This document shows, one piece after another, positions 2,887-24,947 of a DNA stretch of 32,000 nucleotides. Within the stretch, counting starts at the first letter, position 1. Every line of letters starts with the position of its first letter. The stretch covers positions 1,380,001-1,412,000 of the forward strand of contig JALDRA010000001.1 in assembly GCA_031316235.1 (NCBI GenBank), read 5' to 3'. Source of the stretch: Candidatus Scalindua sp. (lineage in GTDB: Bacteria; Planctomycetota; Brocadiia; Brocadiales; Scalinduaceae). The notes below the pieces were generated by a model, which was not told where the DNA came from, did no database searches, and saw only the letters and a program-made list of their open reading frames with translations. A program made the position numbers and the translations under genes.

Positions 2887-2897
2887 AATACTTTCCC

Positions 2898-3809: not shown

Positions 3810-4753
3810 CTTCTCATCCTTTCAATCTCTATTGCCGGTGTTCCCAGATACGTGTTATCTGGAGGTAGATCCTTAATAACCCCGGACCAGCCACCGACCG
3901 TTACATTATCCCCGACAGTAACATGGCCGGCAACTCCCGCCCCCCCTGCAAGAATCACATGATTACCGATCTTAACCGAACCAGCGATACCAACCTGTGA
4001 TGTTACCAGGGTATCCTCACCAATTTCAACATTATGCGCTATAATAACCTGACTGTCAATCTTGGTTCCTCTCTTTATCCTCGTTTCTCCCAGGACCGCG
4101 CGATTTATCGTTGTATTAGCACCAACATCGACATCATCTTCGATTACCGTTGTGCCTACTTGTGGAATCTTATAGTACTTATGCCCATCCGGGGCATACC
4201 CGTATCCACTGCAACCGATCACAACATTACTGTGAATAGTCACGCGTTCACCAATTTTAGTACCGTTATAAATTACGGTATTCGGGTATAGAATGGTATC
4301 CGTTCCTATTTGACAATCATCCCCGACATAAACACCTGGATGCAAAACAACATTGTCGGCAATCCTTGTATTTTCTCCAACAAAAACGTATGGATAAACC
4401 GTTACATTGGAACCAATTTCTGCAGACTCTCCGATTGTTGCAAACCTGTCGCAGGTACCAGGATATTTTGTTTCGGGATTCATCATCAGATCCATAATCT
4501 TCGCAAATGCCAGGTACGGATTTTTGGTAACCAACAGGTTTTTATCTCCAGTCTTTATGCCTGGGGAGACAATAACGGCTGAAGCCTTCGTCTGATCGAT
4601 CTTTTTAATATATTTCTCATTAGAGACAAAGGTTATATATCCCTCGGTGGCGACATCAATAGTCATTACCCCCCTGATTCGTATATTCTCGTTTCCGAAA
4701 ACATCTCCGCCCACATAATCAGCCAGCTCTCTTAATGTTTTTTCCATCTCCAT
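3704..4753 (-). CDS. lpxD: UDP-3-O-acylglucosamine N-acyltransferase LpxD
   Basis: The N-terminal domain (LRELADYVGGDVFGNENIRIRGV) is followed by a long run of left-handed beta-helix hexapeptide repeats and a C-terminal helical tail. Confidence 0.9.
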   Translation of the reverse strand: MEMEKTLRELADYVGGDVFGNENIRIRGVMTIDVATEGYITFVSNEKYIKKIDQTKASAVIVSPGIKTGDKNLLVTKNPYLAFAKIMDLMMNPETKYPGTCDRFATIGESAEIGSNVTVYPYVFVGENTRIADNVVLHPGVYVGDDCQIGTDTILYPNTVIYNGTKIGERVTIHSNVVIGCSGYGYAPDGHKYYKIPQVGTTVIEDDVDVGANTTINRAVLGETRIKRGTKIDSQVIIAHNVEIGEDTLVTSQVGIAGSVKIGNHVILAGGAGVAGHVTVGDNVTVGGWSGVIKDLPPDNTYLGTPAIEIERMRRCYVILQKLPEMRETIKSLQKKVTQLEKQLGAGKE

Positions 4754-8284: not shown

Positions 8285-11200
8285 TATACACCTCCTCTGT
8301 AGCTAAAACTGTCTCATCATCAAGATGTTCTTCCTGACGAATCCTCTCTAATGATTTTCTATATTCCATTGGTATAACTTTAACGAATAAAGGCAGACTG
8401 CTTTCCCAGTGATCAAGGATCTCTTTTCCCCTGACACTTTGGGTATATTTTACATGTTTTTCCAACAAGGCATAAAGGATTTTTTTGTCCTCTTCAGTCC
8501 AGACACTTTCCAAATCAACCATATCCAAATTGCACTTCATACCGAACCATTCGTGCTCATCATAAACATAGGCTATGCCACCGCTCATCCCGGCTCCAAA
8601 ATTGTTCCCTGTCTGCCCGATAACGACCACAATACCCCCAGTCATATACTCGCATCCGTGATCACCAACGCCTTCGACAACTGCCGTTGCTCCGCTGTTC
8701 CTCACAGCAAAACGCTCACCCACCATGCCATGGAGATATAGCTCCCCTTTTGTAGCACCATAGAGGATCACATTACCGGCGATAATATTTTCATGAGGTT
8801 TGAATGTTGTTCCCCGAGGAGGGTTGATGATAATTTTCCCTCCAGACATACCCTTGCCAACATAGTCGTTTGCATCACCTTCGACACGTATGGTTACCCC
8901 GGGAACCATAAATGCTCCAAGGCTCTGTCCGGCAGACCCGGTAAAATTAAGCTGAATCGTATCTTCAGGTAGTCCGAGTGAACCGAATTTCCGGGTTATT
9001 TCACTACACAGCATAGTCCCCACCGTTCGATTAACATTCCTGATCGGAAGATTGATGATAGTGGGTTCCTTTTTTGTTAATGTTCCTTCTGACAACCTGA
9101 TCAGTTCATTATCCAGCGCTTCTGACAACTCATGGTCCTGCGCTTTAACACATCGTAAGTTGTTCTTGCCTCCGGGATCGGAGTGCGTTAAAAGTGCACT
9201 GAAATCCAGATGCTTCGCTTTCCAATGGTTTGCAGCATCTTGTACCTCAAGTTTATCAACGCGCCCTACCATTTCATCCACCGTTTTCATACCCAACTCA
9301 GCCATATATTCGCGCATTTCCCGGGCTATAAATCGGAAATAACGCTCTACATATTCAACTTTTCCTTCAAACTTCTCACGGAGAACAGGATTTTGCGTTG
9401 CAACGCCGACCGGGCAGGTATTCATATGACATTTTCTCATCAAAACACATCCCAGGGTAACTAAAACGGATGTCCCGAATCCGTATTCCTCGGCACCAAG
9501 CAGAGCCGCAATCACACAATCTCGGCCCGTCTTGAGCTGGCCATCCGTCTGTACAACAATTCTGTCTCGCAGCCCGTTGGCTACAAGTGTCTGCTGGGTT
9601 TCCGACAATCCGAGCTCCCAAGGCACACCAGCATGTAATATGCTGGACCAGGGTGCCGCCCCGGTGCCCCCATCATACCCGCTGATAAGCACAAGATCTG
9701 CCTTCGCTTTCGCTACGCCTGCAGCAACGGTACCAACACCCGCAGCAGAAACGAGCTTCACCGATACCTTTGCTTTCGGATTGGAACAATGAAGATCATA
9801 AATTATCTGTTTCAAGTCCTCTATTGAATAAATGTCATGGTGAGGTGGAGGAGAAATCAGCGAAACACCGGGTGTAGTATGCCTTACTTTCGCAATTTCA
9901 GGACTCACCTTATGTCCGGGCAGGTGCCCCCCCTCTCCGGGTTTCGCTCCCTGGGCAATTTTTATCTGAAGTTCCTCTGCATTCAAGAGGTACTCGCTGG
10001 TTACTCCAAAACGGCCAGATGCAACCTGCTTGATTTTGGAGATTTTCCAGTCACCATTCGGGAGCTTCTTAAATCTTTCAGGGTCTTCACCCCCTTCTCC
10101 AGAATTACTCCGCCCGCCAATGCGGTTCATTGCTATAGCAATCGCCTCATGAGTTTCCCTACTGACAGAGCCAAAAGACATTGCTGCTGTAACAAACCGC
10201 TTCATGATATCTTCTATCGGTTCGACTTCTTCAATGGGAACCTTCACACACTCTTTAAATTTAAACAGACCTCGCAATGTAGCTAGCTCTTTCGTCTGAT
10301 TATCTATCAGCCGGGTAAACTCTTTGAAAACTTTATAGTCATCATTGCGGGTAGCCTGCTGGAGTTTGTATATTGTCTCGGGAACCCAGAGATGTTTTTC
10401 TCCTCCATATTTCACAGAAAAACGTCCCCCGATATCCAGGAGTTCATCAGGATGACCATTAGGTGGATATGCTTTCCGGTGCCGCGCATAAACTTCCTGT
10501 GCGATCTCCTCCAGGCCAATACCGCCTACCCGTGAAGATGTGTTACAGAAATATTGATCGATTACTGATCTATCTATCCCTATAGCCTCAAAAATCTGAG
10601 ACCCGAAGAAACTCCGGATAGTTGAAATACCCATCCGGCTAAACGTCTTCAAAAGACCTTTCTTAATTGCAGAGATGTAGCTGTCCATCGCATCTTCAGC
10701 AGACATCCCATTTCCAATGAGCGATTGTTCGGACAATTCCCTCACTGAACTGAAAGCAACATAGGGACAAATAGCTGAAATCCCGAAAGCAATAAGAAGA
10801 GAAAAGTGCATGACTTCCCGTGCCTCTCCCGTTTCAATAATCAATCCACATGCATTCCTGAGACCCTTCTTTATCAAATGGTGATGCAGACCGGACACAG
10901 CAAGAAGTGCTGGAATAGGGCATCGGTTCTTATCCATACTCCTGTCTGTGAGAATCAGAATATTGGCACCATCTTCGATATGTCTCTCCGCTTTTTCAAA
11001 TAGTGACTCCATAGCTGAATATAACGCGCTCCCCCCCCCTTCGGCAGAAAAAAGGATGTCGACTTTCCGAACCAACATGTGCGGATGGTTAGCGTTACGA
11101 ATACGCCACATATCAGTAGGACTGAGTATGGGATGTGACAACTTCAGCTGCCTGCACTGTTCCGGTGTTTCTTCAAGGAGTCCACCTTTTTTTCCGAGAA

Positions 11201-12902
11201 AACTCATCAGCGACATCACAAGCTCTTCACGCAAAGGATCGATAGGCGGGTTCGTTACCTGTGCAAACAATTGCTTGAAATAATGAAACAAAAGCTGGGG
11301 CTTATTGGACAGCACCGCAAGAGCATTATCATTTCCCATGGCCCCAATTGGCTCCTGCCCCTGACTGGACATAGGAACAATCAAGGAATTAACATCTTCT
11401 TCAGTATAGCCAAATGCATGCTGCTGGATCCGAAGCTCTTCCAGGTTAATTTTTGGCACCCTGGACGGATTAAAGAGTCCGCGGAGTTCAATCAGGTTTT
11501 CTTTCAGCCAACGCCGATACGGTGATTGTCTTGATATTTTTGCCTTGATTTCATTGTCCGGTACCACCCGGTTCTGCTGCAAATCTACCAGAAACATTTT
11601 GCCGGGTTGTAACCTCCCGCGTTGACGGACCTTATCTCCCGGGATATCAAGGACACCGGTTTCAGAAGCCATGACTATCATGCCGCCTTTGGTTACCGTG
11701 TAACGCGCAGGCCTTAATCCATTCCTGTCGAGCATGGCCCCTATATATCGCCCATCAGTAATAACAATAGCGGCGGGGCCATCCCATGGCTCCATAAAAG
11801 AGGCATGATACTCATAAAAGCCGCGTTTATCTTCACTCATATAGTATTTTTTTCCGTAGGCTTCAGGAACCATCATCATAGCTGCATGAGAAAGAGATCT
11901 GCCTGCATGGATGAGTAATTCAAACACGTTATCAAAAATTGCCGAATCGCTGCCAAATTCATCATGAATAATTGGCTTAATTTTATCTATGTCAGCACCA
12001 AATGATTCCGACCGTAAATCTTTCTCTCGGGATTTCATCTGATTAATATTCCCGCGCAGGGTATTGATTTCTCCATTATGTGCAAGGCAGCGGAAAGGCT
12101 GTGCCAGATTCCAGGCTGGTAAAGTATTTGTGCTGTAACGCTGATGAATAATGCCAAACGCCGACATAAAACGAGAATCACCAAGATCAGAAAAAAAGAG
12201 AGGCAATTGGGTGCCCGTCAGCAATCCTTTGTAAACAACGGTCTTACAACTCAAGCTGCAAACATAAAACTGGCTGAAATCTCCCGTCGTCCAGGAGGAA
12301 ATCTCCTTTTCTAGGGAACGCCTCATGATATAAAGTCTCCTTTCAAGCTCTTCACCTTCATGTGTGCCACCCGATACGAAAATCTGATATATTGTGGGTT
12401 GTGTTACGCGGCTGAGTTCACCCAAGCAATCACTCTTGACAGGAACACTTCTCCACCCAAGCAGTGTGCAATTTTCAGACTCAACCATTTCCTGAACTGT
12501 TTTTCTGCATTTTTCCCTCAATGATTCTTCCGGCGGAAGAAAAAACATTCCCACCCCGTACTTTCCGGGCTGAGGCAATACAATACCCTGACCCTCACAC
12601 ACTCTGCGGAAGAATTCATCAGGAATCTGGACCATAAGTCCACCGCCGTCTCCTGTCCTTTTATCACTTCCGACAGCACCTCGGTGTTCCAGATTTATTG
12701 AAACCCGGATCGCATTCTTTATCACATCATGCGTCGGAGTGCCGTCAATCTGTGCCACAAAACCAACACCGCAGGCACCGTGCTCAAACTTTGGATCGTA
12801 CATCCCATTCCGTTTAGGCTGACCCGCCAGATTAACGTTAAAGAAATTATTACTCTCAGGCATACCAGTTTTTTTCTTTTCCATTATCATTTCCATCCTC
12901 AA
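8277..12902 (-). CDS. gltB: Glutamate synthase large subunit (Ntn amidotransferase, FMN/Fe-S and GXGXG domains)
   Basis: The N-terminal nucleophile context is HGACGVGFVAQ. The FMN domain and the C-terminal beta-helix (GNNFGAGMSGG) are present. The track start is a TTG at 12902. ATGs at 12896 and 12890 follow a GAGGA site and are more likely starts. Confidence 0.95.
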   Translation of the reverse strand: MRMEMIMEKKKTGMPESNNFFNVNLAGQPKRNGMYDPKFEHGACGVGFVAQIDGTPTHDVIKNAIRVSINLEHRGAVGSDKRTGDGGGLMVQIPDEFFRRVCEGQGIVLPQPGKYGVGMFFLPPEESLREKCRKTVQEMVESENCTLLGWRSVPVKSDCLGELSRVTQPTIYQIFVSGGTHEGEELERRLYIMRRSLEKEISSWTTGDFSQFYVCSLSCKTVVYKGLLTGTQLPLFFSDLGDSRFMSAFGIIHQRYSTNTLPAWNLAQPFRCLAHNGEINTLRGNINQMKSREKDLRSESFGADIDKIKPIIHDEFGSDSAIFDNVFELLIHAGRSLSHAAMMMVPEAYGKKYYMSEDKRGFYEYHASFMEPWDGPAAIVITDGRYIGAMLDRNGLRPARYTVTKGGMIVMASETGVLDIPGDKVRQRGRLQPGKMFLVDLQQNRVVPDNEIKAKISRQSPYRRWLKENLIELRGLFNPSRVPKINLEELRIQQHAFGYTEEDVNSLIVPMSSQGQEPIGAMGNDNALAVLSNKPQLLFHYFKQLFAQVTNPPIDPLREELVMSLMSFLGKKGGLLEETPEQCRQLKLSHPILSPTDMWRIRNANHPHMLVRKVDILFSAEGGGSALYSAMESLFEKAERHIEDGANILILTDRSMDKNRCPIPALLAVSGLHHHLIKKGLRNACGLIIETGEAREVMHFSLLIAFGISAICPYVAFSSVRELSEQSLIGNGMSAEDAMDSYISAIKKGLLKTFSRMGISTIRSFFGSQIFEAIGIDRSVIDQYFCNTSSRVGGIGLEEIAQEVYARHRKAYPPNGHPDELLDIGGRFSVKYGGEKHLWVPETIYKLQQATRNDDYKVFKEFTRLIDNQTKELATLRGLFKFKECVKVPIEEVEPIEDIMKRFVTAAMSFGSVSRETHEAIAIAMNRIGGRSNSGEGGEDPERFKKLPNGDWKISKIKQVASGRFGVTSEYLLNAEELQIKIAQGAKPGEGGHLPGHKVSPEIAKVRHTTPGVSLISPPPHHDIYSIEDLKQIIYDLHCSNPKAKVSVKLVSAAGVGTVAAGVAKAKADLVLISGYDGGTGAAPWSSILHAGVPWELGLSETQQTLVANGLRDRIVVQTDGQLKTGRDCVIAALLGAEEYGFGTSVLVTLGCVLMRKCHMNTCPVGVATQNPVLREKFEGKVEYVERYFRFIAREMREYMAELGMKTVDEMVGRVDKLEVQDAANHWKAKHLDFSALLTHSDPGGKNNLRCVKAQDHELSEALDNELIRLSEGTLTKKEPTIINLPIRNVNRTVGTMLCSEITRKFGSLGLPEDTIQLNFTGSAGQSLGAFMVPGVTIRVEGDANDYVGKGMSGGKIIINPPRGTTFKPHENIIAGNVILYGATKGELYLHGMVGERFAVRNSGATAVVEGVGDHGCEYMTGGIVVVIGQTGNNFGAGMSGGIAYVYDEHEWFGMKCNLDMVDLESVWTEEDKKILYALLEKHVKYTQSVRGKEILDHWESSLPLFVKVIPMEYRKSLERIRQEEHLDDETVLATEEVYNG

Positions 12903-13782: not shown

Positions 13783-14025
13783 CTCCTACAATAAATTACA
13801 AATAAACCATATACTCTAAAATCGCAGCAATTGTTATACCAATAAAGCAGATCCTAGTATGTGTATTTGTATATCCCGCGTAAGGGTGCAACCTGTAAAA
13901 TCTTATGAGAATGAATTTATCCTGACTATAATTTGTACAGGGTCCTTAATTTTATAAACCCATCTAAATTTCAATATTTTCGCATTTACCACAAAACGTT
14001 CCGAAATATTTACGCGGTGAATACC

Positions 14026-14054
14026 TTGAAATTACGAGAAATAAATTGTAATAT
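14026..14054 (+). promoter_or_regulatory. Candidate sigma-70 promoter for the 14129 gene
   Basis: The site reads TTGAAA (14026-14031), a 17-nt spacer, then TAATAT (14049-14054). It is followed directly by the inverted repeat GTACAT-N10-ATGTAC (14055-14076), then AAGGAG seven nt before the ATG. Confidence 0.45.
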
Positions 14055-14128
14055 GTACATATAAATTATAATGTACGTATCTTATCAATAGAAACAATTT
14101 TGCTAATACTTATTCAAGGAGATAAAAA

Positions 14129-14923
14129 ATGATCCGCAGTTTTTCTGTCTATCTATCAGGCCTTATCGTTATTGTACCTATTATCTGTCTGGTTCCCATT
14201 ACTGTGTTTGCAAAAGAGAATACCATAGGCGAAGAGCATCAGGGTATGAACACGGGAAGATTGCAGCGTATCAGCAATACGGAACCTGGCGATGCTCAAC
14301 CACCGATTTCAGGAAAAATAGTAGAAACAATGAATAGCGGCGGTTACACGTATCTCCTTTTAGAAAAAGAGGGAAAACAGACCTGGGTTGCTGTCAAGGA
14401 GATGAAAGTATCCGTCGGCCAGGAAATCTCCCTTGATCCGGGACATCAAATGGTCAATTTCACGAGTAAGACGCTAAACCGCACCTTCGATACAATCATT
14501 TTTTCTTCCGGCCCCTCTTCACTCCACGGTTCTTCTCAGTCTGACAAAAAGATGGGAATCGGGAGCAAGAACACAACCGTCCACAGTGAAGAAAAAGTTG
14601 AGGTAAAAAAAGCTGAAGGTGCTAATGTGTATACGATTGCAGAACTGTACCAGAAAGGTAAAAGACTTGACAAAAAAAGTGTTACTATTCGTGGTAAAGT
14701 AATGAAAGTTTCTGTCGGAATCATGGGCAAGAACTGGCTTCACATTCAGGACGGCACTGGGGATGAGAAGAACAATACACACGATCTTGTGGTAACCACC
14801 CAAGACCAACCCTCCGTTGACGATATCGTGAAGGTAAACGGAACCTTGTATCTGAACAAAGATTTCGGGAGTGGCTATAAATATGACGTTATCGTGGAGG
14901 AGGCACACATAAGTAAAGAATAG
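14129..14923 (+). CDS. Secreted two-domain hypothetical protein: an N-terminal 'GGYTY' beta-domain and a C-terminal BOF/YgiW-like OB-fold
   Basis: The signal peptide ends in ITVFA/KE. Domain 1 contains GKIVETMNSGGYTYLLLEKEGKQTWVAV...FTSKTLNRTFDTIIF. Domain 2 (VTIRGKVMKV...WLHIQDGTG...VKVNGTLYL...DVIVEEAHI) resembles periplasmic bacterial OB-fold proteins. Confidence 0.55.
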   Translation: MIRSFSVYLSGLIVIVPIICLVPITVFAKENTIGEEHQGMNTGRLQRISNTEPGDAQPPISGKIVETMNSGGYTYLLLEKEGKQTWVAVKEMKVSVGQEISLDPGHQMVNFTSKTLNRTFDTIIFSSGPSSLHGSSQSDKKMGIGSKNTTVHSEEKVEVKKAEGANVYTIAELYQKGKRLDKKSVTIRGKVMKVSVGIMGKNWLHIQDGTGDEKNNTHDLVVTTQDQPSVDDIVKVNGTLYLNKDFGSGYKYDVIVEEAHISKE

Positions 14924-14930
14924 GAGATTA

Positions 14931-14969
14931 AGGCACAGCTGACCCCCTGGCAGATAGTCAGCTGTGCCT
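14931..14969 (+). terminator. Perfect 13-bp stem-loop 8 nt after the stop codon (terminator-like, no U tract)
   Basis: aggcacagctgac (14931-14943) pairs with gtcagctgtgcct (14957-14969) around a 13-nt loop. Confidence 0.4.
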
Positions 14970-14997
14970 GAGTTGAATTCCATGGTATGAAATATAT

Positions 14998-15053
14998 ACT
15001 TCTCCCGCTTTAGGTTTCAAATGGAGAAGTACGATTAAAGCGCCTGCGCTTTA
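14998..15053 (+). promoter_or_regulatory. Two further hairpins in the leader of the molybdoenzyme gene
   Basis: acttctcc (14998-15005) pairs with ggagaagt (15023-15030). taaagcg (15036-15042) pairs with cgcttta (15047-15053) and is followed by gtgaaaatttta. Confidence 0.3.
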
Positions 15054-15093
15054 GTGAAAATTTTAGATTCTTACCTGCTTAAAAAGGAATAAC

Positions 15094-17190
15094 ATGCAGC
15101 AGAAAAAATCCGTGTGCCCCTATTGTGGAATAGGGTGTGGTTTATTAGTTGATTATGAGCATGGCGAGATTGTCCAAGTCAACCCAATGACAAACCACCC
15201 CGCAAATCAAGGGATTATTTGCCAATTACCCGTTAATCTGCCAAAGCTTTTCGCACACAAAGATCGATTGAGAAATCCGATGAGAAGGCAAAACAACCAA
15301 TTGATACCCGTCAGCTGGGACGAAGCTATCTCACATGTTGCGCTCGAACTTAACCGCATTATAAAGGATTACGGTCCCGATTCAGTTGCATTCTTTGGAG
15401 GTGCCGCCTGTTTTTCTGAAGAATATTATCTTGTAAACAAGTTAATGAAGACTGTTATCGGTTCTAATAATGTAGAAAGTACATCACGATTGTGTATGGT
15501 CAGCACAGCAATGGGCTTAATTTCAACACTCGGCGCTGATGCCCCCCCTGCCTGTTATGCGGATATAGAAGAAGCAGATCTTTTCTTTATTGCCGGCAAC
15601 AATATGGCTGTATCATTGCCCGTAATATTTAATCGTGTCCGTGCAGCTCGTGAGAAAAATTCCCACACGAAAGTAATCGTTGTAGATCCCCGAAAAACAG
15701 AGACTGCATCAATTGCCGACATCCATTTGCAGTTAAATCCCGGTACTGACGTTGCCTTAAACAATTCCCTGGCCTATGTCCTCATCAATAAGGGCTTTAT
15801 TGATGAGGACTTTATCAAGAAATACACTACAGGATTCGAAGATCTGAAAGAATTAGTACAAGAATATCCGCCCGCCCGTGCTGCCCAAATTACGGGTTGC
15901 AACGAAAAACAGATTTTTGAGACAGCACAAACAATTGGCCAGTCAAAGGCAATGCTCACGTTCTGGTTTCAAGGGTATAACCAATCAACACAAGCCGTCT
16001 TCAAAAACAACACCTTGCACAACTTATCATTGTTAACGGGTAATTATTGTCGTGTTGGCACTGGACCTCTGTCGATAACGGGTGAGGCAAATACGATGGG
16101 TTGCAGGTGGGGAGGAGCACTATCCCATCTCCTGCCTGGAATGAGGTTGGTTTCCAATAGTAAGCATCGAGAAGAGATTGCAGAACTTTTTGGTACTCCG
16201 GCAGAAAAAATAAATCCCATACCAGGTCTTTCTATCATAGATATCATCAAAGGCCTTCACTCCGGTGATGTGCGTGCACTGTGGGTCCTCGCATCAAACC
16301 CAGCTGCTTCACTCCCCGATACGGAATGGGTGAAAGCAGCACTGTCAAAAGCTGAATTGCTCATAGTGCAGGATATTTTCCATCCTACAGAAACATCGAT
16401 GCTTGCAGATGTTGTTCTTGCGGGGGCACAATGGTGCGAAAAAACCGGAACATTCATATCCTCAGAACGACGTATCGAACTGGTCGAGAAAATTGTAGAC
16501 CCCCCGGGAAATGCTAAATCCGATATCGAGATTATCTGTATGATAGCAAGAGAGATGGGATTTTCTGATAAATTTCCCTTTACCTCACCCGAAGAAGTAT
16601 TTGATGCGTTGAAAAAAACCACCCGTGGACGTATCTGTGATACAACTGGTGTAAGTTATGACCGGTTACGAAATAATACCGGTCCGCAATTACCTTGTCC
16701 CGAAGATGATCATCCCGGTACAATGCGATTATTTGAAGACAGGCAATTTCCCAGGCCGGATGGACGTGCAGCACTGCTTGCCCGACATTATCAAGGCCCT
16801 GCAGAAAAGACCGACAGTGAATATCCCTTTGCTCTCATAACTGGCCGCATGGCAAATCATTTCAACACGGGCACACGCACCGGCCGTCTTGCCGATAGTA
16901 ACGACACAGCACCTGTCAATTTTGTGGAAATCCATCCAGATGACTCCAGGGATATTGAACTTGCAGATGGGGATGAGGTAGATATCATTTCTCGCCGGGG
17001 CAGCGTTCGATGTGTCGTTTCAATCCAGGAAAGGATATTGACCGGGACTGTTTTCATGACTTTGCACTTTGGGGAAACTGTTTCAGGCAAAAAAAACACA
17101 CTGGCTAACCTTGTTTGCAATCCTGTTTACGATAACCATTCTAAGCAGCCGGAATACAAGTTCTGTGCAGTTAAAATTAAGAGAATTTAA
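15094..17190 (+). CDS. Cytoplasmic molybdopterin (bis-MGD) oxidoreductase resembling assimilatory nitrate reductase NarB/NasA
   Basis: There is no Tat or Sec signal. The N-terminal 4Fe-4S motif is CPYCGIGCG...C43. The putative Mo-ligand context is STSRLCMVSTAMG. The length of 698 aa and a C-terminal molybdopterin dinucleotide-binding domain fit the family. The substrate cannot be assigned from sequence. Confidence 0.7.
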   Translation: MQQKKSVCPYCGIGCGLLVDYEHGEIVQVNPMTNHPANQGIICQLPVNLPKLFAHKDRLRNPMRRQNNQLIPVSWDEAISHVALELNRIIKDYGPDSVAFFGGAACFSEEYYLVNKLMKTVIGSNNVESTSRLCMVSTAMGLISTLGADAPPACYADIEEADLFFIAGNNMAVSLPVIFNRVRAAREKNSHTKVIVVDPRKTETASIADIHLQLNPGTDVALNNSLAYVLINKGFIDEDFIKKYTTGFEDLKELVQEYPPARAAQITGCNEKQIFETAQTIGQSKAMLTFWFQGYNQSTQAVFKNNTLHNLSLLTGNYCRVGTGPLSITGEANTMGCRWGGALSHLLPGMRLVSNSKHREEIAELFGTPAEKINPIPGLSIIDIIKGLHSGDVRALWVLASNPAASLPDTEWVKAALSKAELLIVQDIFHPTETSMLADVVLAGAQWCEKTGTFISSERRIELVEKIVDPPGNAKSDIEIICMIAREMGFSDKFPFTSPEEVFDALKKTTRGRICDTTGVSYDRLRNNTGPQLPCPEDDHPGTMRLFEDRQFPRPDGRAALLARHYQGPAEKTDSEYPFALITGRMANHFNTGTRTGRLADSNDTAPVNFVEIHPDDSRDIELADGDEVDIISRRGSVRCVVSIQERILTGTVFMTLHFGETVSGKKNTLANLVCNPVYDNHSKQPEYKFCAVKIKRI

Positions 17191-17204
17191 CCTTTAAAAA
17201 ACTA

Positions 17205-19379
17205 ATGATTGAAAAAAACATGATAAACCAACCAGATATTCCTCTTCAAACAATCGGTTTTTTTGAAAAGTTATTAAGGGCTTCTGCGGATGGAATCATG
17301 ATTGTGGATGCATCCCATAACATCATTGTTGCAAATGAGGCATTCTGCGAATTTTTTCAACACAAGAGAAGCGAGATCATTGAAACGGACCTGTTTTACT
17401 GGCTAGAGCAACTTGACACCAATGCTATTAAAAACTGGACAAAACTTGAGAAAATAGTTCATGCAGAAGGCATCTGTCGTGACGCTGAGTTCAAATTTGC
17501 CACAGAACAATACGGATCAAAATATCTCAGTGTCAATGCCTCTGTTTTGAAACGTGTAGGATTAGAAGAAACCGGCGTTATCATCAGCATCTGGCGCGAT
17601 GTTACGGAGCAGAAAAAGACCGAAAAAGTACTGGAGCTGCGTGAAAAACAACAAGCCGTAATCAGTAATTTAGGCGTACTTGCACTCTCAACACAAACAG
17701 ACGTATCTGAGCTGATGAATGAAGCGGTTAATCAGGTCGCAAAGACACTTGAAGTCGATTATTGCAGCGTCTTTGAACTTCTGCCCGGAGGAGAAGAAAT
17801 GCTTATGCGATCAGGAGCGGGCTGGAACAAAGGTACCGTAGGAAACACAACCCTGGAAGCCAATCACAATCAACACACATTTGATACCATCTTATCCCGT
17901 GAACCTTCCATATTCCAGGATATCCGAACCGAAACAGCGTTACATGATACGAAACTATTCCATGATCACAAAATTGTCAGTGGTATGCATACTGTTGTCT
18001 ACGACAAGGAGAAACCATTTGGAATACTAGGAGTATACACTACAGACCTGCATCAATTCAGTAAAGATAACGTCCATTTTCTTCAAGCCATAGCAAACAT
18101 GCTCTCAAATTCAATGAAGCGAAAGCGCTTAGAGACAGATTTAAAGATCCTGAACAGATCATTGGAAAAACGTGTTAATGCCCGAACCGAAGAGCTTTCT
18201 GAAAAAAACCAGGAATTACTTTCTGAAATTTCCGAACGCAAGCAAATAGAAGAGACACTCCTGCAATCGGAAAAACTAAAGGCATTGGGAGTCATGAGTT
18301 CAGGTGTCGCCCATGAGTTCAATAATATCCTTGCAATAATCATGGGATATGCCCAACTGATGCAACAAGGATACGGGGATCATAAAAAACTCGGAAAAAG
18401 TATTCGGGTTATTATAGAAGCTACCAAAGATGGAGCTGAGATTGTCCGCAGGATGCAGGAGTTTACTAATCTAAAAAAAGATTCTGCACTGTATGTTTTG
18501 CTGGACATGAAGGATATGATACAACAGGCAATTGACTATACCATGCCTAAATGGAAACACATGGCCCAGGCCAATGGAATAGATTACCATATCGACTTTA
18601 CTGACGTAAGAGAAACACCTCCGGTATCCGGTAACACCGCAGAGTTGAAAGAGGTATTGGTAAATATAATTAATAACGCCTTAGATGCTATGCCTGAAGG
18701 AGGTACCCTTACCTTTAGTACATGGAAGAGGAACAACGTTGTTTTTGTCAGCATATCCGACACCGGTGAAGGGATGTATGAAGATGTACAGAAGCAGATA
18801 TTTGACCCTTTTTTTTCTACCAAATTACCAACTGGAAGTGGGCTGGGTCTGAGTGCTGCTTACGGCATAATGGTCAGGCACGGAGGTAATATAATGGTAG
18901 AAAGCGAGGTTGGGAATGGGAGTACATTCGTTTTGAGCTTGCCTGTATCTGAAGAAATTTCCAGGCCAACGATGTCGTCTGAGCCCTCTCTTGCCTTAAA
19001 AGAAAACAGCTTAAACATCCTGATCGTAGACGATGAGGAATATGTGTGTGAGTTTTTAAGTGAATTTTTTACTGAAGGAGGTCATACGGTTCGAAAAGCA
19101 TGCAATGGCAATGATGCCATCAAGATGCTCATGCATGGCAGTTTTGATCTTTTGCTCTGCGATCTGGTCATGCCTGACGTAACGGGAAAAGATGTTATAA
19201 AAACTCTGGAGACTTCAGGTAAAAAACCACATAAGGTTGGACTCATAACCGGCTGGAACTACAATGCGGAAGATGCGGATAAAGAGGACGTAAAAGTGGA
19301 TTTTATCATAAAGAAGCCTATTGATTTTGATGACCTGCTCAACAAGATCAATAATGCCTTCAGTTTTCAAAAAGTGTGA
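17205..19379 (+). CDS. Hybrid sensor histidine kinase (PAS, GAF, coiled coil, HisKA, HATPase_c, REC)
   Basis: The PAS region is LLRASADGIMIVD...WRDVTEQKK. The GAF region is LEVDYCSVFELL...FGILGVYT. The H-box is SSGVAHEFNNIL. The N and G boxes are NIINNALDAM, DTGEGM and GSGLGLS. The receiver is ILIVDDEE...LLLCDLVMPD. The gene starts 14 nt after the molybdoenzyme stop. Confidence 0.85.
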   Translation: MIEKNMINQPDIPLQTIGFFEKLLRASADGIMIVDASHNIIVANEAFCEFFQHKRSEIIETDLFYWLEQLDTNAIKNWTKLEKIVHAEGICRDAEFKFATEQYGSKYLSVNASVLKRVGLEETGVIISIWRDVTEQKKTEKVLELREKQQAVISNLGVLALSTQTDVSELMNEAVNQVAKTLEVDYCSVFELLPGGEEMLMRSGAGWNKGTVGNTTLEANHNQHTFDTILSREPSIFQDIRTETALHDTKLFHDHKIVSGMHTVVYDKEKPFGILGVYTTDLHQFSKDNVHFLQAIANMLSNSMKRKRLETDLKILNRSLEKRVNARTEELSEKNQELLSEISERKQIEETLLQSEKLKALGVMSSGVAHEFNNILAIIMGYAQLMQQGYGDHKKLGKSIRVIIEATKDGAEIVRRMQEFTNLKKDSALYVLLDMKDMIQQAIDYTMPKWKHMAQANGIDYHIDFTDVRETPPVSGNTAELKEVLVNIINNALDAMPEGGTLTFSTWKRNNVVFVSISDTGEGMYEDVQKQIFDPFFSTKLPTGSGLGLSAAYGIMVRHGGNIMVESEVGNGSTFVLSLPVSEEISRPTMSSEPSLALKENSLNILIVDDEEYVCEFLSEFFTEGGHTVRKACNGNDAIKMLMHGSFDLLLCDLVMPDVTGKDVIKTLETSGKKPHKVGLITGWNYNAEDADKEDVKVDFIIKKPIDFDDLLNKINNAFSFQKV

Positions 19380-19568
19380 TATCTCAGTCTCCTCATCTAC
19401 AATTCCCAGTCAAAAAACTCCTCATCTGTCGAGTTAGAGACTATTTTACCGTACCCTGTTTTCTTAAGGAAGCATCTTCACCCATTCCTGTACACAATAA
19501 AAGGCTGGTTATAACTCAGACATATTGTGGCAATAATACTTTTTGTATTTTTTTTCATGGAGTAAAAC

Positions 19569-20432
19569 ATGACAAAGATGAAACAACTCTATTCGATCAT
19601 GATAAGCGCAATGGGAGTAGAGAATTATGAAATTCCAATGACCGCTGTCAAATTTTTTAAAAAAGAGGATGAGATCCCGGAACCGGTACAAATGAATAAG
19701 CCATCTATCTCATTAACAAGTTGCCAAGCCACAAAACAGGCATCTCTGGGCGATGCAGCTCTTTTAACTTACGATAACATTGGCTGTGTAGCAGCCGCCA
19801 TAACCTTTGGCCTGGTGGATCAGAATCGGACCGAACCGCTTGGTGAATCAAGGGTATATACAGATATTATGCGCGATCAATCCGGATTAGGCGGGGACTT
19901 TAAGCCTCCCTCTCCAAAGGATTTTACCACTGGTACTGTTTATGCCTGTAAAGCCGCAGACCGTATGGATTTTGCTCTTTTCGGCAAGGATGATGTTGGC
20001 CGTTTTAAAGATGAGGAAACTGCCAAAAAAGCTATTGCAGACATGATGGCCATACAACCACCAACTATGAAGGGTGTCTTTTTTTATTCGATAGATTTTG
20101 ATGACCTGGATTTAATACCCGATGTGGTAGTCTTAAACGTTCGATCCGCTGAATTGTCCAGACTCATCCAGGCATATCAATTCAATACGGGAAAACGGGT
20201 AACAGCGAGTATGGGTGGTTTGAGGGTCGTTAACTCTGACCTCATAGTCCGTCCTTATCTGACCCAGGAAATCAATATTGCTCCATATTGTCTTGGAGCC
20301 AGACTTATAGCAGAGTTTGAAGCTGATCGATTGGGTATGGGTATGCCCTTTCACCTCTTTGAGGAGACCGTAAAGGGAATGGAAGACTCCAAGACCGGCT
20401 TCCCCTTCCACCTCTATCCGGGAGTTAGTTGA
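19569..20432 (+). CDS. DUF169 (COG2043) family protein of unknown function
   Basis: The pattern is typical of DUF169: AVKFFKKEDEIPE, SCQATKQA, NIGCVAAAITFGL, PDVVVLNVRSAELSRLIQA, and a C-terminal GMPFHLFEETVKGME. A GGAG site lies 8 nt upstream of the ATG. Confidence 0.65.
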   Translation: MTKMKQLYSIMISAMGVENYEIPMTAVKFFKKEDEIPEPVQMNKPSISLTSCQATKQASLGDAALLTYDNIGCVAAAITFGLVDQNRTEPLGESRVYTDIMRDQSGLGGDFKPPSPKDFTTGTVYACKAADRMDFALFGKDDVGRFKDEETAKKAIADMMAIQPPTMKGVFFYSIDFDDLDLIPDVVVLNVRSAELSRLIQAYQFNTGKRVTASMGGLRVVNSDLIVRPYLTQEINIAPYCLGARLIAEFEADRLGMGMPFHLFEETVKGMEDSKTGFPFHLYPGVS

Positions 20433-20492
20433 AGGAGTGCTGGTTTTTGGGATAAATTCGAGGAAAACGGAGTGAGTCTACCATTAACCAGG

Positions 20493-20532
20493 CTTTGATT
20501 TTTAGAAAACTCTAAAACCAAAGTGGTTTTTT
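20493..20532 (+). terminator. Candidate rho-independent terminator after the DUF169 gene
   Basis: An imperfect AU-rich stem pairs ctttgatttttag with ctaaaaccaaag (one mismatch, one bulge). It is followed by tggtttttt. Confidence 0.4.
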
Positions 20533-20620
20533 AATACAATACGCTTTTGTGATTTGTCATGGTTCCCGATAAACACTTTTTTTCCGCCTATTGTTGAAAT
20601 TTTTTATATGGACATTTTTC

Positions 20621-22057
20621 ATGAATAACCTTGTAAAGACGTTAATAAACAGGATGTCCAGGGTAACACAAACCCCTTTGACACAGAAGCATATGGACAT
20701 CCTTGAGTATGCTCACAATTATTATGAAAAAAACAGGGTAGGACCTCTCTATCTTAATCTAAAAAAAAACACAGGAGCAACCAGAGAAGAGATCGAGAAC
20801 CTGTTTCCCCATGGCCTTACATCTGTCTACACCTGGGTGGGTATTCCGATTCAAACGGGAAGAGAAATTTGTAAACCTATGGCTATGGTAGATGTTGAAG
20901 ACTACCGGGAAGTCTATTTCGATCACAATGCAACAAGCTATATTCGAGATGAAGTAAGAGAGAAGCTCATTAACTATTATCACGGTTCTTATGATTTTGG
21001 CAACCCAAGCAGCAGCACAAATCCTGGTAAAATAGCGTATGATACACTTCAAATGGCTCGCTCCCGGATTTCTGATTGCCTGAAAGTGAATTCGACTGAA
21101 ATATTTTTTACGGGGAGCGGTTCGGAAGCCAACAATATGGCCATTAAGGGAATTGCCTTTCAGCACCTGAAAAACAAAGGACACATTATCAGCAGCAAAG
21201 TGGAACATCCTTCAGTGCTGAAGACCCTCCAGTACTTAGAAAAATTGGGATTTCGAGTGACCTATTTAGATATAGAAAAAAATGGACTCGTTGAAGCCCA
21301 TTCCGTAAAGGACAGTCTGACTGAAGATACCCTCCTCGTTTCTCTTATGGCCGTAAATAATGAGATTGGAGCAATAAATCCTGTTAGTGAAATTGGGGAA
21401 GTCTGTAAGAAAGCAAATGTACCCTTTATGGTCGACGGAATACAGGGATTCTGTAAAATCAAGCTCAAGCCAAAAGAGATGGGAATCTCTTTACTCTCAA
21501 TGTCAGGACACAAGATTTATGCTCCAAAGGGTGTTGCGGCTTTATATGTCAACAAAGATATATCTTTGGAACCATTAATCCATGGAGGAGGACAGGAATT
21601 TGGATTACGCTCCGGAACAGAAAACGTGGGATCAATTATGGCTTTTGGACTGGCTGCTAAACTGGCTCATTCTGAAATGGAAAAAGAAAACAAACGTTTG
21701 CTTGAATTAAGAGATTACTTTTTAGAAGGTCTTCAAAAAATTGAGCCGGACATTATCATCAACGGTTCCCTGGAGCAACGAACCGTTAACAACCTCAACG
21801 TAGGGTTCCCAAATATTGACAGCGGTTCACTGCTGCTCAGCCTGAACCAGATCGGCGTCTATGTCTCTGCCGGGTCTGCTTGCAGTGCGGGAAGCAAAGA
21901 GGCCTCATACGTAATCAAGGCACTCGGAGTGGATACCGGACGTTATGGAATTATAAGATTTAGTTTTGGACTCTCCAATACCAAGGAGGATATCAATTAC
22001 CTCTTCAAGTACCTGCCCTCCATTCTGAAGCAACTGAAGGCCGAGAAAACAGATTGA
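20621..22057 (+). CDS. Fusion protein: N-terminal TusE/DsrC-like sulfur-relay domain plus a NifS/IscS-type class V cysteine desulfurase
   Basis: The N-terminal ~85 aa (LTQKHMDILEYAHNYYEKNRVGP...LFPHGLTSVYTWVGIPIQTGREICKP) parallel the E. coli TusE C-terminal half (LSPEHWEVVRFVRDFY...[23 protein letters not shown]), including the terminal Cys. The remainder is a canonical desulfurase. Its motifs are YFDHNATS, GNPSS, FTGSGSEANN, the PLP lysine in SMSGHKIYAPKG, GGGQEFGLRSGTEN, and the catalytic Cys in SAGSACSAGS. The track start at 20591 is a TTG. The in-frame ATG at 20621 is preferred but uncertain. Confidence 0.8.
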   Translation: MNNLVKTLINRMSRVTQTPLTQKHMDILEYAHNYYEKNRVGPLYLNLKKNTGATREEIENLFPHGLTSVYTWVGIPIQTGREICKPMAMVDVEDYREVYFDHNATSYIRDEVREKLINYYHGSYDFGNPSSSTNPGKIAYDTLQMARSRISDCLKVNSTEIFFTGSGSEANNMAIKGIAFQHLKNKGHIISSKVEHPSVLKTLQYLEKLGFRVTYLDIEKNGLVEAHSVKDSLTEDTLLVSLMAVNNEIGAINPVSEIGEVCKKANVPFMVDGIQGFCKIKLKPKEMGISLLSMSGHKIYAPKGVAALYVNKDISLEPLIHGGGQEFGLRSGTENVGSIMAFGLAAKLAHSEMEKENKRLLELRDYFLEGLQKIEPDIIINGSLEQRTVNNLNVGFPNIDSGSLLLSLNQIGVYVSAGSACSAGSKEASYVIKALGVDTGRYGIIRFSFGLSNTKEDINYLFKYLPSILKQLKAEKTD

Positions 22058-22280
22058 AATTTCAGCAGGAGTAATGAATGTAGCGGCTGGTTGCCGAAAG
22101 CACTCATACTCTGTAATGTAAATGCAATATCTCGCTTTTTTTTGGCATAAGATGGACAAAAACCTAACAGGACACTACTGGTTTTTCAGGTTTGAGAAAC
22201 CAAGCCTATAGATGTTTCAAGACGGGCTAAAAAGCTATCATTCTCAGGGGTACATTCCGTATACCTTTGTGCAAATTTAG

Positions 22281-22408
22281 CATTTATATATCATTTCAGA
22301 AGTTGCCAAGCCAAGAAATTCCTTCCAATCCTCTACCATTTCATTAAAAGCTGATAGCGATGGCGGAGAAAGTAGGTATCCTCTTGACTTTTCCCATAAT
22401 TGATGAGA
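22281..22408. repeat. Family-2 paralogous segment, copy 1 (degraded gene remnant or shared upstream element)
   Basis: ttcagaagttgccaagccaagaaattccttccaatcctctaccatttcattaa aligns with 26113-26165. The flanking tttcccataa block is also shared. Confidence 0.65.
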
Positions 22409-22530
22409 CACTTATCCCGCAGTAAGGTATTTTACTATCAGGGTACCTATTGAACAGGAAAGTACAGGGTAAAAATCTATCGTAGTGTTACCCTGTTACC
22501 CATACCAATTCAATAGAGATAACAATATAT

Positions 22531-24282
22531 ATGAAAGTATTTTCCATACCTCCCGCATATAAAAATTTTCTCACATACGTGAAACCGTACCGATGGTTAA
22601 TCCTCGCCGCAACACTATTTGGGCTTCTGAAATACAACATACCGTTGCTTTTCCCCTGGATTTTTAAAGGGATAATTGATGACTTGCTGAAGCCTTCTTC
22701 CTATGATATCAGGAAATTATACTTTACTATGGCAGCAATGATTTTGCTTTATGTTGTCTGGGCAGTAGCTTCGTATTTCAGGTCTTATTTTGCCGACAGG
22801 ACCGGGCAAAAGATTATTTTTGACTTACGGCAGGAACTCTATGCACACCTTCAGAGAATGTCACTGAATTTTTATGAAAGACGTCAGGTGGGTTCTGTTG
22901 CCGCACGTTTACTTGGCGACATTTCATCTGCACAGAATTTTGTGGGTGCTGCTTTCACCAATACTATAATGGATGCCAGTTCGCTTTTCCTGAATTCATT
23001 AATTCTATTTCATATGAATTGGAGGCTTGCACTGGTTTCTGTTTCCATTTTTCCCTTTCATGTTATGTTAAACAAGTATTTTAAAGCACGGATAAAAAAA
23101 ATGAGCAGGCAGATCCAGCAAAAAATGGAGGACATTTCGGGAAATGTCCACGAAAAACTCGGCGGTATTTCTGTTATACAGGCATACACCAGGGAAAAGA
23201 ATGAAGAAACAATCTTTCTTCAGGACAATCGTGAATATTTATCGTTTCAAATGAAAAATATCAACAATAATGCATTTGCCCATTCGATCATCGGCTTTTT
23301 GACCTATCTGGCTCCAGTGCTTGTCGTCTGGTACGGGGCACTTCAAGTAATCAATCACCGCCTTACCATCGGTGAATTAACGGCGTTTTATGCGTACCTT
23401 GGTTTGTTTTACACCCCTCTCAACCGGCTGACGGAACTGAATATCCTTTTAGCAAATTCCCAGGCAGCTATAGAGAGAATATTTGAGGTGCTTACCACCT
23501 CACCGGAAATCGCCCATGATTCCGGAGAAAGAGAACTTGGATCGGTAAAAGGAGAAATACATTTTGTCAACGTCGGTTTTTCATATCAACCGCCAGCCCA
23601 TACCTTGAGAAATATCAATTTATTCATTCCGGCAGGGTGCACGGTAGCATTGGTTGGCCCGAGTGGCGCAGGAAAATCTACCTGTGTAAAACTTATTCCT
23701 CGATTTTATGACGTGTCTGAAGGGATGATCACAATTGACAGTTTTGATATCAGGGAGTTCAAGCTTGAGGATTTGAGAAAACAAATTGCCACAGTACCAC
23801 AGGAGCCCATTTTATTTTCAGGAACAATATATGAAAATATTCTGTTTGGAAAATCAGACGCTACAGAAGTAGAGATAAAAAATGCAGCGACGTCAGCAAA
23901 TGCCCATGATTTTATTTGCAAACTTCCGAATGGGTATCAGTCTGAAATTGGGGAAGGAGGTTTGAAATTATCGGGGGGGCAAAAGCAGCGTATCGCACTG
24001 GCAAGGGCATTTGTAAAAAATGCGCCGATATTGCTGCTCGATGAGGCGACATCTTCATTAGATTCAGAATCGGAAAATCTCATACAACAGGCATTAAAAC
24101 GACTGATGACGGGCAGAACCACGCTTATTATTGCTCACCGCCTTTCCACAATCCAATCGGCCGATATGATTGTTGTATTTGATAATGGAAAAATTGTAGA
24201 GATTGGCACACATAAGGAATTATTACGGAAACAATATGGCCTTTATCGCCGGCTCTATGAAGAGCAGTTTAACAATAAATAA
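22531..24282 (+). CDS. ABC exporter, fused permease and ATPase (MsbA/lipid-exporter-like)
   Basis: A six-TM ABC_membrane domain is followed by Walker A GPSGAGKST, the signature LSGGQKQRIALARA and Walker B LLLDEATSSLD. Confidence 0.85.
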   Translation: MKVFSIPPAYKNFLTYVKPYRWLILAATLFGLLKYNIPLLFPWIFKGIIDDLLKPSSYDIRKLYFTMAAMILLYVVWAVASYFRSYFADRTGQKIIFDLRQELYAHLQRMSLNFYERRQVGSVAARLLGDISSAQNFVGAAFTNTIMDASSLFLNSLILFHMNWRLALVSVSIFPFHVMLNKYFKARIKKMSRQIQQKMEDISGNVHEKLGGISVIQAYTREKNEETIFLQDNREYLSFQMKNINNNAFAHSIIGFLTYLAPVLVVWYGALQVINHRLTIGELTAFYAYLGLFYTPLNRLTELNILLANSQAAIERIFEVLTTSPEIAHDSGERELGSVKGEIHFVNVGFSYQPPAHTLRNINLFIPAGCTVALVGPSGAGKSTCVKLIPRFYDVSEGMITIDSFDIREFKLEDLRKQIATVPQEPILFSGTIYENILFGKSDATEVEIKNAATSANAHDFICKLPNGYQSEIGEGGLKLSGGQKQRIALARAFVKNAPILLLDEATSSLDSESENLIQQALKRLMTGRTTLIIAHRLSTIQSADMIVVFDNGKIVEIGTHKELLRKQYGLYRRLYEEQFNNK

Positions 24283-24383
24283 CTATTCGAATGATTTGAT
24301 TTAACTTATCATGTGTACGCTATTCCACAAATACTGTTTTTAGAATATTATCTATGTTATTGATCTTTATAAAGGAGATGAAT

Positions 24384-24947
24384 ATGAATTTATGGAAAGA
24401 TTTACCTGTAGGCACTGATTCTCCAAACAGTGTAAACGTCATTGTTGAAATTCCGAAAGGTTCACGCAATAAATACGAATTTGATAAAAAAACAGGCTCG
24501 TTCAGGCTTGACCGTGTTCTCTATTCGTCAATTCACTACCCGGGTGACTACGGGTTGATACCACAGACATTTTATGATGATGGTGATCCACTTGATGTTT
24601 TGGTAATGGTGAATGAGCCGACTTTTTCCGGTTGTATTATACAGGCACGTCCTATCGGGCTGTTTCGGATGAAAGACCGTGGAGAGCCTGATGATAAAAT
24701 TCTTGCCATACCGGAACAAGACCCTTTTTTCAGAGATTATCATGATATTGCGGACATTCCGCAGCATTTTCTGCAGGAAATTGCACACTTCTTTTCCGTG
24801 TATAAGGATTTAGAGGGTTCACATGTTAAAACCATTGGCTGGGAAGGTGCGGCCAACGCAAGGAAATGTATTGTATATTCAGCGGGTTTATACAAAAAAA
24901 AGATGCGGGGAAAAAAGAGTAATACATCTTCAGCAAGGATAAAATAA
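24384..24947 (+). CDS. ppa: Inorganic pyrophosphatase, family I
   Basis: The motifs are NVIVEIPKGSRNKYEFDK and DGDPLDVLVM. The start was moved to the ATG at 24384, which lies 6 nt after AGGAG. The track start at 24354 adds an unlikely 10-aa leader. A lysine-rich C-terminal tail is present. Confidence 0.9.
   Translation: MNLWKDLPVGTDSPNSVNVIVEIPKGSRNKYEFDKKTGSFRLDRVLYSSIHYPGDYGLIPQTFYDDGDPLDVLVMVNEPTFSGCIIQARPIGLFRMKDRGEPDDKILAIPEQDPFFRDYHDIADIPQHFLQEIAHFFSVYKDLEGSHVKTIGWEGAANARKCIVYSAGLYKKKMRGKKSNTSSARIK

Follow-up and report, generated by a model that had tools for sequence, protein, structure and literature searches.

A DsrC/TusE-type domain fused to a cysteine desulfurase and its DUF169 partner gene in Candidatus Scalindua

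Cysteine desulfurases supply the sulfur of all sulfur-containing cofactors and thionucleosides, and the acceptor that receives the sulfur sets the pathway. In the Escherichia coli relay IscS-TusA-TusBCD-TusE-MnmA, TusE hands its sulfur directly to MnmA. In Bacillus, the dedicated desulfurase YrvO works directly with MnmA. DsrC holds the middle position in the chain from DsrEFH over DsrC to DsrAB. SufS-SufE and CsdA-CsdE are pairs of a desulfurase and its acceptor, and the eukaryotic molybdenum cofactor (Moco) sulfurase ABA3/MOCOS consists of a NifS-like and a Moco-binding domain. Here we describe a gene of Candidatus Scalindua sp. which encodes a DsrC/TusE-type domain and a cysteine desulfurase on one polypeptide and lies directly downstream of a gene for a DUF169 protein. 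Both are located in a stretch of 32,000 nucleotides, hereafter the window (assembly GCA_031316235.1, contig JALDRA010000001.1, positions 1,380,001 to 1,412,000).

The locus resembles the Tus relay of E. coli in having a group-I desulfurase as sulfur source and a DsrC-family module with a single cysteine of the CysA type as putative carrier. It differs in that the carrier is covalently joined to the N-terminus of the desulfurase, and in that the linked partner is DUF169, the genes for TusA, TusBCD and MnmA not being linked. Unlike DsrC, the module has no dsrAB or dsrEFH genes in its context and occurs also outside the sulfate reducers, in anammox bacteria, nitrite oxidisers and Anaerolineae. 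As in SufS-SufE, CsdA-CsdE and ABA3/MOCOS, a dedicated acceptor beside or fused to the desulfurase would channel persulfide to one destination, but the acceptor is DsrC-like rather than a SufE/CsdE or MOSC protein, it is joined to the N-terminus and not to the C-terminus of the desulfurase, and the downstream partner in the relay would be the uncharacterised DUF169.

A desulfurase with a DsrC/TusE-type domain at its front

The fusion gene and its parts have the following positions in the window.

20621..22057, + strand: fusion gene, DsrC/TusE-like domain and NifS/IscS-type cysteine desulfurase, 478 amino acids plus stop
20621..20887, + strand: residues 1-89, truncated single-cysteine DsrC/TusE-family domain (N-domain), five helices, then an unstructured arm (74-89)
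20870..20872, + strand: codon TGT of Cys84, candidate persulfide-acceptor cysteine, aligned with CysA of DsrC/TusE
20873..20911, + strand: residues 85-97, linker of fixed length and conserved pattern KPxAxVxVxxxRx
20912..22054, + strand: residues 98-478, group-I NifS/IscS-type cysteine desulfurase dependent on pyridoxal 5'-phosphate (PLP), from the Aminotran_5 match and the IscS alignment
21512..21514, + strand: codon AAG of Lys298, PLP-binding lysine (SGHK), conserved throughout the family and equivalent to IscS Lys206
21881..21883, + strand: codon TGC of Cys421, catalytic persulfide-forming cysteine (SAGSAC), equivalent to IscS Cys328

The initial annotation, made from the sequence by eye, had proposed a TusE/DsrC-like domain fused to a NifS/IscS desulfurase. 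This proposal is borne out by Pfam, profile and fold matches which agree with each other. In Pfam, both parts of the architecture were found: DsrC (PF04358) on residues 7-67, with 23.6 bits (E 7.2e-5) slightly short of the gathering score and with profile positions 24-91 of 107 covered, and Aminotran_5 (PF00266) on residues 98-461, corresponding to profile positions 1-371 of 371 (E 5.7e-70). A precomputed PF04358 match is carried by many orthologues, and for many homologues PF04358 and PF00266 are precomputed together.

A profile was built from 33 orthologous N-terminal domains of 89 amino acids each, whose alignment was free of insertions and deletions. Searched against all PDB sequences, this N-domain profile retrieved seven chains of the DsrC family and essentially nothing else, namely 2xsj_C (E 5.8e-10), 2v4j_C (1.2e-8), 3or1_C, 3or2_C, 1yx3_A, 1ji8_A and 1sau_A, with E values from 5.8e-10 to 5e-3. 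Residues 18-65 of the fusion protein paired with DsrC residues 40-87 of 105. The significant match expected for the first 90 residues was thus obtained by profile, and the fold led to the same family. An AlphaFold2 model of residues 1-89 (predicted local distance difference test, pLDDT, 89.3) comprised five helices followed by an unstructured tail of low confidence at residues 74-89. The top seven Foldseek matches of this model in the PDB all belonged to the DsrC family (TMq 0.57-0.75, probability 1.0). The best of them, 2v4j_C, reached a TMq of 0.75 and a root-mean-square deviation of 1.6 Å over 76 columns, and after the seventh match the scores fell to noise. Both the profile and the predicted fold show homology of the N-domain to the DsrC/TusE family.

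In a MAFFT alignment with canonical DsrC proteins of 105 amino acids, LFPHG (61-65), GIP (74-76) and Cys84 fell into the columns of the DsrC motifs LFPxG, (A/V)G(L/I)P and CysA. The segment LFP(H/K)G...G(I/L)P...C, previously recognised by eye, was reproduced in this way. DsrC provided the best profile and fold matches (2v4j_C, 2xsj_C, 1yx3). In common with it, the domain has the helical core, both motifs LFPxG and xGxP and, at its C-terminal end, a flexible arm with a reactive cysteine. The low pLDDT and the lack of secondary structure in residues 74-89 fit an arm of the swinging DsrC type.

Several features set the domain apart from DsrC and TusE. The first ~22-26 residues of DsrC have no counterpart, as seen in ~26 gapped columns of the MAFFT alignment and in a Pfam match which begins at profile position 24, and with them the N-terminal beta-hairpin region is missing. 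The match had at first been assigned to the C-terminal half of TusE/DsrC. The family assignment holds, whereas the extent is about three quarters of the family (positions ~24-105). Cys84 occupies the CysA column, but its distance from GxP exceeds that in DsrC by three residues. Compared with the carrier of the Tus relay, the arm is 2-3 residues longer. Cys84 is internal and followed by KP and the linker, whereas CysA is the penultimate residue of DsrC and TusE. The column of CysB, the cysteine that defines a true DsrC, holds Y or T in the window and in all orthologues, with VYTW in place of ACKW, and Cys84 is the sole cysteine of the domain. The N-domain is a truncated DsrC-family module with the single-cysteine pattern of TusE. 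It is not a true DsrC: the curated cutoffs for single sequences were missed, and the N-terminal segment and CysB are absent.

DsrC-like domains were also encountered in tandem. The proteins P0256 and P0285 (541-542 amino acids) carry five DsrC-like repeats and P0259 (249 amino acids) carries two; the CysB/CysA pattern is present in some of these repeats and absent from others.

The desulfurase domain is complete. Residues 98-466 aligned with residues 5-374 of E. coli IscS (E 1.6e-81; 1p3w/3lvj), and all catalytic residues are kept: His196 (IscS H104), Asp272 (D180), Gln275 (Q183), Lys298 (K206), Cys421 (C328) and Arg446 (R354). The PLP lysine and the catalytic cysteine loop picked out in the initial annotation are thereby matched to their IscS equivalents. 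With NifS and IscS (TIGR03402, TIGR02006; 1p3w, 4eb5, 1ecx) the domain shares the full PLP fold and the SxGSAC loop. It differs from them in scoring below the equivalog cutoffs, in its additional N-terminal carrier domain and in a gene position outside isc, nif or suf operons. The NifS model TIGR03402 gave 406 bits, under its equivalog cutoff of 530.75, and the IscS models TIGR02006 and NF010611 gave 361 bits (cutoff 643) and 365 bits (cutoff 548). The domain ends near IscS residue 385 and lacks the C-terminal tail of IscS. It is a group-I desulfurase and not an equivalog of NifS or IscS. Among solved structures, no N-terminal extension of this type was present, all PDB matches beginning at query residue 91 or later.

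The reading frame ends with the stop codon at 22055-22057 (+) and offers two candidate starts, TTG at 20591 and ATG at 20621. Homologues from many phyla have the N-terminus MNN(L/Y)xKT(L/F)INRM in common, which agrees with the ATG at 20621. This ATG is the true start, as the homologues keep the same N-terminus. The TTG was ruled out; the ten residues it would add are not conserved among homologues. Since the start codon lies upstream of the DsrC-like region, the first 90 residues are translated, as the proposed fusion presupposed. In several homologues the gene call begins too far downstream (P0025, 455 amino acids; P0011 and P0014-P0022, 468 amino acids; P0087, 402 amino acids). Such late starts, for example in Candidatus Scalindua japonica, clip the DsrC-like domain partly or wholly and hide the fusion in annotations.

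A search of 5.8 billion proteins returned ~118 full-length homologues of the same architecture with identities of 59-78%, and Cys84 was kept in every one of them. Among 45 orthologues taken from genome assemblies, Cys84 and Cys421 were the only invariant cysteines. The distance from Gly74 to His102, which spans the arm, the cysteine and the linker, was exactly 29 residues in 44 of these 45, with the semi-conserved pattern CKPxAxVxVxxxRxVY. When 1.84 billion representatives clustered at 50% identity were searched with the N-domain profile, the subtype was seen solely in fusions or obvious fragments of them, and canonical DsrC was reached at E ~1e-7 only. The N-domain subtype is essentially always fused. 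The fusion is not an artefact, as the same architecture was found in the ~118 full-length homologues and in 48 genomes at species level. The gene product is a true two-domain protein, in which a DsrC/TusE-type domain precedes the desulfurase.

At NCBI a few homologues are named 'TusE/DsrC/DsvC family sulfur relay protein' and others just 'cysteine desulfurase'. Automated annotation already flags both domains, and the architecture is less exotic than first implied. What is new is the conserved pairing with DUF169. Literature searches on DsrC, TusE, NifS, DUF169 and COG2043 topics returned no account of the fusion or of a link between DUF169 and a desulfurase.

The DUF169 gene and the distribution of the pair

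Directly upstream of the fusion gene lie two features.

19569..20432, + strand: DUF169 (PF02596) gene, 287 amino acids, conserved operon partner
20433..20620, + strand: intergenic spacer of 188 bp between the DUF169 gene and the fusion gene, long for the module

The DUF169 protein matched PF02596 with 125 bits (gathering score 27; E 4.8e-36) over profile positions 13-208 of 209. An orthologue was found immediately upstream of the fusion gene and on the same strand at all 46 loci with upstream DNA, which represent at least 12 phyla (phmmer E 1e-106 to 1e-183). The DUF169 neighbour named in the initial annotation is therefore a strictly conserved partner. Independently retrieved contigs again had DUF169 directly upstream of the fusion. 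All-against-all clustering of the flanking open reading frames, large and small, yielded no other universal neighbour, and no carrier gene of the size of TusA, ThiS or MoaD was conserved in the flanks.

The gap between both genes had a median of 14 bp and measured -8 to 30 bp at 34 of 48 loci, with several overlaps of 4-8 bp. In loci of the Scalindua type it was 94-283 bp, so that the 188 bp of the window are typical of Scalindua. The DUF169 partners were at least 51% pairwise identical across phyla. Over 990 locus pairs the pairwise identities of the DUF169 and the fusion proteins were correlated with r = 0.86, and the two genes therefore travel together. DUF169 and the fusion are a self-contained two-gene operon whose genes are passed on together in many phyla.

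Three cysteines of DUF169, namely Cys52, Cys73 and Cys241, were invariant, and Cys127 was present in 91% of the orthologues. The protein was modelled by AlphaFold2 with a pLDDT of 93.7 and a predicted TM-score of 0.91.

The distribution was determined with a single peptide pattern in one genome per GTDB species, and the 48 loci obtained are a lower bound. The locus closest to the window belonged to Candidatus Scalindua (94% identity). The fusion was further found in Desulforapulum, Desulfocicer, Desulfosudis, other Desulfobacteraceae and Syntrophobacteraceae. It was found as well in Nitrospinia, SAR324, Spirochaetales, Gemmatimonadota, Alpha- and Gammaproteobacteria, in Anaerolineales, Caldilineaceae, Ignavibacteriales, Acidobacteria and KSB1, and in the magnetotactic Nitrospirota lineage Magnetocorallium. 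The pair in a metagenome-assembled genome of Nitrospinia (L010) was 74-78% identical to the Scalindua pairs (L005-L009) and thus closer than most other pairs. These identities suggest a horizontal transfer of the DUF169 and fusion module across phyla, among marine nitrogen-cycle bacteria.

DUF169 is a widespread family without known chemistry. It was mentioned incidentally in a nitrate-fitness cluster of Desulfovibrio G20 (PMC4001038), among YedE-associated genes in a comparative-genomics study of selenium utilisation (PMC5322559) and in archaeal SepRS neighbourhoods (PMC8762117). Several of the incidental mentions concern sulfur or selenium contexts.

A proposed persulfide relay and its alternatives

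We propose that the fusion protein and DUF169 form a persulfide relay which runs from Cys421 over Cys84 to DUF169. Belief and doubt are evenly balanced for this model as a whole, and its steps differ in their support. In the first step, the PLP site would take sulfur from free L-cysteine and form a persulfide on Cys421, as follows from the intact active site. In the second step, the persulfide of Cys421 would be transferred to Cys84 of the flexible arm, within the same chain or between the two chains of the desulfurase dimer, and this transfer would stand in for separate carriers of the TusA, TusBCD and TusE type. We infer, in line with the initial annotation, that the fusion short-circuits a multi-protein relay. 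In the third step, to which the gene linkage points, the carrier arm would deliver sulfur to DUF169, with the three invariant cysteines as putative acceptor site. By the same guilt by association, DUF169 is the likely destination of the sulfur. It might act as a sulfur-inserting enzyme or as the site at which an Fe-S cluster or another sulfur-containing cofactor is assembled.

The transfer between Cys84 and Cys421 appears geometrically permissive in principle. In IscS and NifS, the N-terminal strand and the cysteine loop are parts of one small domain, and the strand leads into the active-site segment 'NAT(T/S)'. Cys84 is located 14 residues before the position equivalent to IscS residue 5.

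A number of observations weigh against the proposed relay. As a single sequence, the fusion protein scored 23.6 bits with PF04358, below the gathering score of 24.9, and 24 bits with the NCBIfam model TIGR03342 (dsrC_tusE_dsvC), for which the cutoff is 53.5. The linker after Cys84 is semi-conserved and looks strand-like; the cysteine may be held in place rather than swinging. The PDB contained no relatives of DUF169 by sequence and none by fold (best TM ~0.2). When five DUF169 orthologues on long contigs were sampled, the fusion followed directly downstream in three (L053, L056, L057), and two had no fusion gene within 5-9 kb (L054, L055). The latter two orthologues (L054:9001-9867 and L055:5001-5867) are 72-74% identical to that of the window and are placed on contigs of Mb size. 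At L055 the DUF169 gene is directly followed by a transposase pair of the IS21 type, and then by a toxin-antitoxin pair and Cas6.

The semi-conserved linker leads to a different reading of the N-domain, in which it serves for docking or regulation and does not carry sulfur. Its helix-turn-helix-like core would bind DUF169 or another partner, and Cys84 would be a redox or gating switch; a disulfide or trisulfide between Cys84 and Cys421, for instance, could turn the desulfurase off with no onward transfer of sulfur. The fixed length of the linker suggests that the domain is held beside the catalytic domain, and the recurrent sensor kinases and cytoplasmic SsuA-like binding proteins near the loci, described below, suggest tight regulation. 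There is also precedent for non-carriers in the DsrC family, the members of the RspA type being devoid of cysteines. However, Cys84 is invariant and occupies the CysA position in a disordered arm, as is characteristic of the carriers in this family, and cysteine desulfurases normally require an acceptor for turnover. We therefore consider a docking role unlikely.

The single-cysteine pattern of the N-domain, with CysA present and CysB absent, is that of TusE and would suit a fused TusE for tRNA thiolation. In that case the protein would pass sulfur straight to MnmA for 2-thiouridine at position 34 (s2U34) in place of the TusA-TusBCD-TusE chain, and DUF169 would be incidental or accessory. Shortened s2U relays do exist. 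The gene context speaks against such a role, since neither mnmA nor other PP-loop or thiolation genes were conserved within ±7 kb of the 48 loci, at which DUF169 is the sole universal neighbour. Nor were tusBCD genes conserved in the flanks of these loci. Moreover, the sequence of the N-domain resembles the DsrC of sulfate reducers (E 6e-10) more closely than it does 7syb, a DsrC-family sulfurtransferase from the gammaproteobacterium Acinetobacter baumannii (E 0.77). Taken together, a tRNA-thiolation enzyme is distinctly improbable.

Group-I desulfurases generally act also on selenocysteine. The NifS-like domain could accordingly be a selenocysteine lyase, with Cys84 carrying a selenosulfide to DUF169, and the place of a DUF169 protein in the list of YedE-associated genes would agree with this. 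Yet the domain scored 99.8 bits with the selenocysteine lyase model SclA (cutoff 525) and 406 bits with NifS, and selD, selA and yedE/yedF were not conserved in the flanks, which makes a selenium pathway very improbable. A desulfurase for DNA phosphorothioation or defence, similar to DndA or SspA, is effectively refuted by gene context: the PADLOC models SspA and DndA matched the desulfurase domain (E 1e-125 to 1e-127) and TIGR03235 (DndA) gave 330 bits, but these PADLOC models describe generic IscS-like desulfurases, the DndA score lies under its cutoff of 480, dndBCDE and sspBCD are absent near all loci, and DUF169 has no PADLOC match.

With the relay from Cys421 over Cys84 to DUF169 as the preferred reading, a wider claim can be formulated, which we regard as somewhat less likely than not. 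DUF169 and the fusion could constitute an unrecognised, cross-phylum and horizontally mobile system for sulfur insertion or cofactor assembly, in which DUF169, as an enzyme or scaffold of a new class, would accept sulfur from a relay on one polypeptide. Should DUF169 prove to be a new sulfur-insertion enzyme or cluster scaffold, bacterial sulfur trafficking would gain a new branch. The combination of a built-in carrier of the DsrC/TusE type and a constant partner gives DUF169 a concrete, testable function, and the module would do in compact form what the Tus and Dsr relays do with several proteins. Its carriers have environmental weight and include the marine anammox bacterium Scalindua, Nitrospinia, SAR324 and sulfate reducers. 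The last of these groups has cultured representatives, such as Desulforapulum autotrophicum and Desulfosudis oleivorans, which make experiments feasible.

Wider gene neighbourhood

Two large genes precede DUF169 in the window.

15094..17190, + strand: cytoplasmic oxidoreductase with a molybdenum bis(pyranopterin guanine dinucleotide) cofactor (Mo-bisPGD), Fdh-alpha/NasC-like, with an N-terminal 4Fe-4S domain (Pfam)
17205..19379, + strand: hybrid sensor kinase PAS-GAF-HisKA-HATPase-REC (Pfam), possible regulator, directly upstream of DUF169

The molybdoenzyme had been listed as a neighbour of the fusion gene, and it was considered here as a functional partner and rejected. Molybdenum enzymes occurred in ~7 of 50 loci, with no constant side or strand. 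They were not orthologous and were distantly related among themselves, with E 1e-26 to 1e-39 against the enzyme of the window. The latter scored under every NCBIfam cutoff, with 600 bits for Fdh-alpha (cutoff 666) and 509 bits for NasC (cutoff 1100). In two other Scalindua genomes (L005, L006), a Mo-oxidoreductase is followed by a PAS-GAF hybrid histidine kinase in the same order.

Sensor kinases adjoin the DUF169 and fusion pair upstream in Scalindua and downstream in Desulfobacteraceae, and they are not universal. A cytoplasmic SsuA/NMT1_2-like protein of ~310 amino acids, without signal peptide and with a conserved HPCC motif, was encoded beside the pair at 10 or more loci of different phyla. 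This protein may serve the module as a third component with a sensory role, and the module may be controlled by these recurrent SsuA-like HPCC proteins together with nearby PAS kinases. Examples of the SsuA/NMT1_2-like proteins are L003:9462-10394, L034:4038-4973, L041:5570-6526, L051:8500-9438 and L057:7375-8307. In Anaerolineales, the SsuA/NMT1_2-like part resides inside a REC-NMT1-CheW fusion (L001:5151-7115, L053:7017-8984).

An Rfam search at gathering thresholds for riboswitches or other RNA elements in the window and eight loci returned one tRNA only. A scan of positions 13800-22600 for promoters and terminators gave no excess over shuffled sequence. An open reading frame of 264 amino acids (14129-14923, +), which shortly precedes the Mo-oxidoreductase, matched no model of Pfam, NCBIfam or PADLOC. 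The remainder of the window (6806-12902, -; 1813-4753, -; 24354-24947, +) encodes ordinary housekeeping functions, namely the large and small subunits of glutamate synthase, LpxD, LpxI, a sigma-54 activator, an ABC exporter and an inorganic pyrophosphatase.

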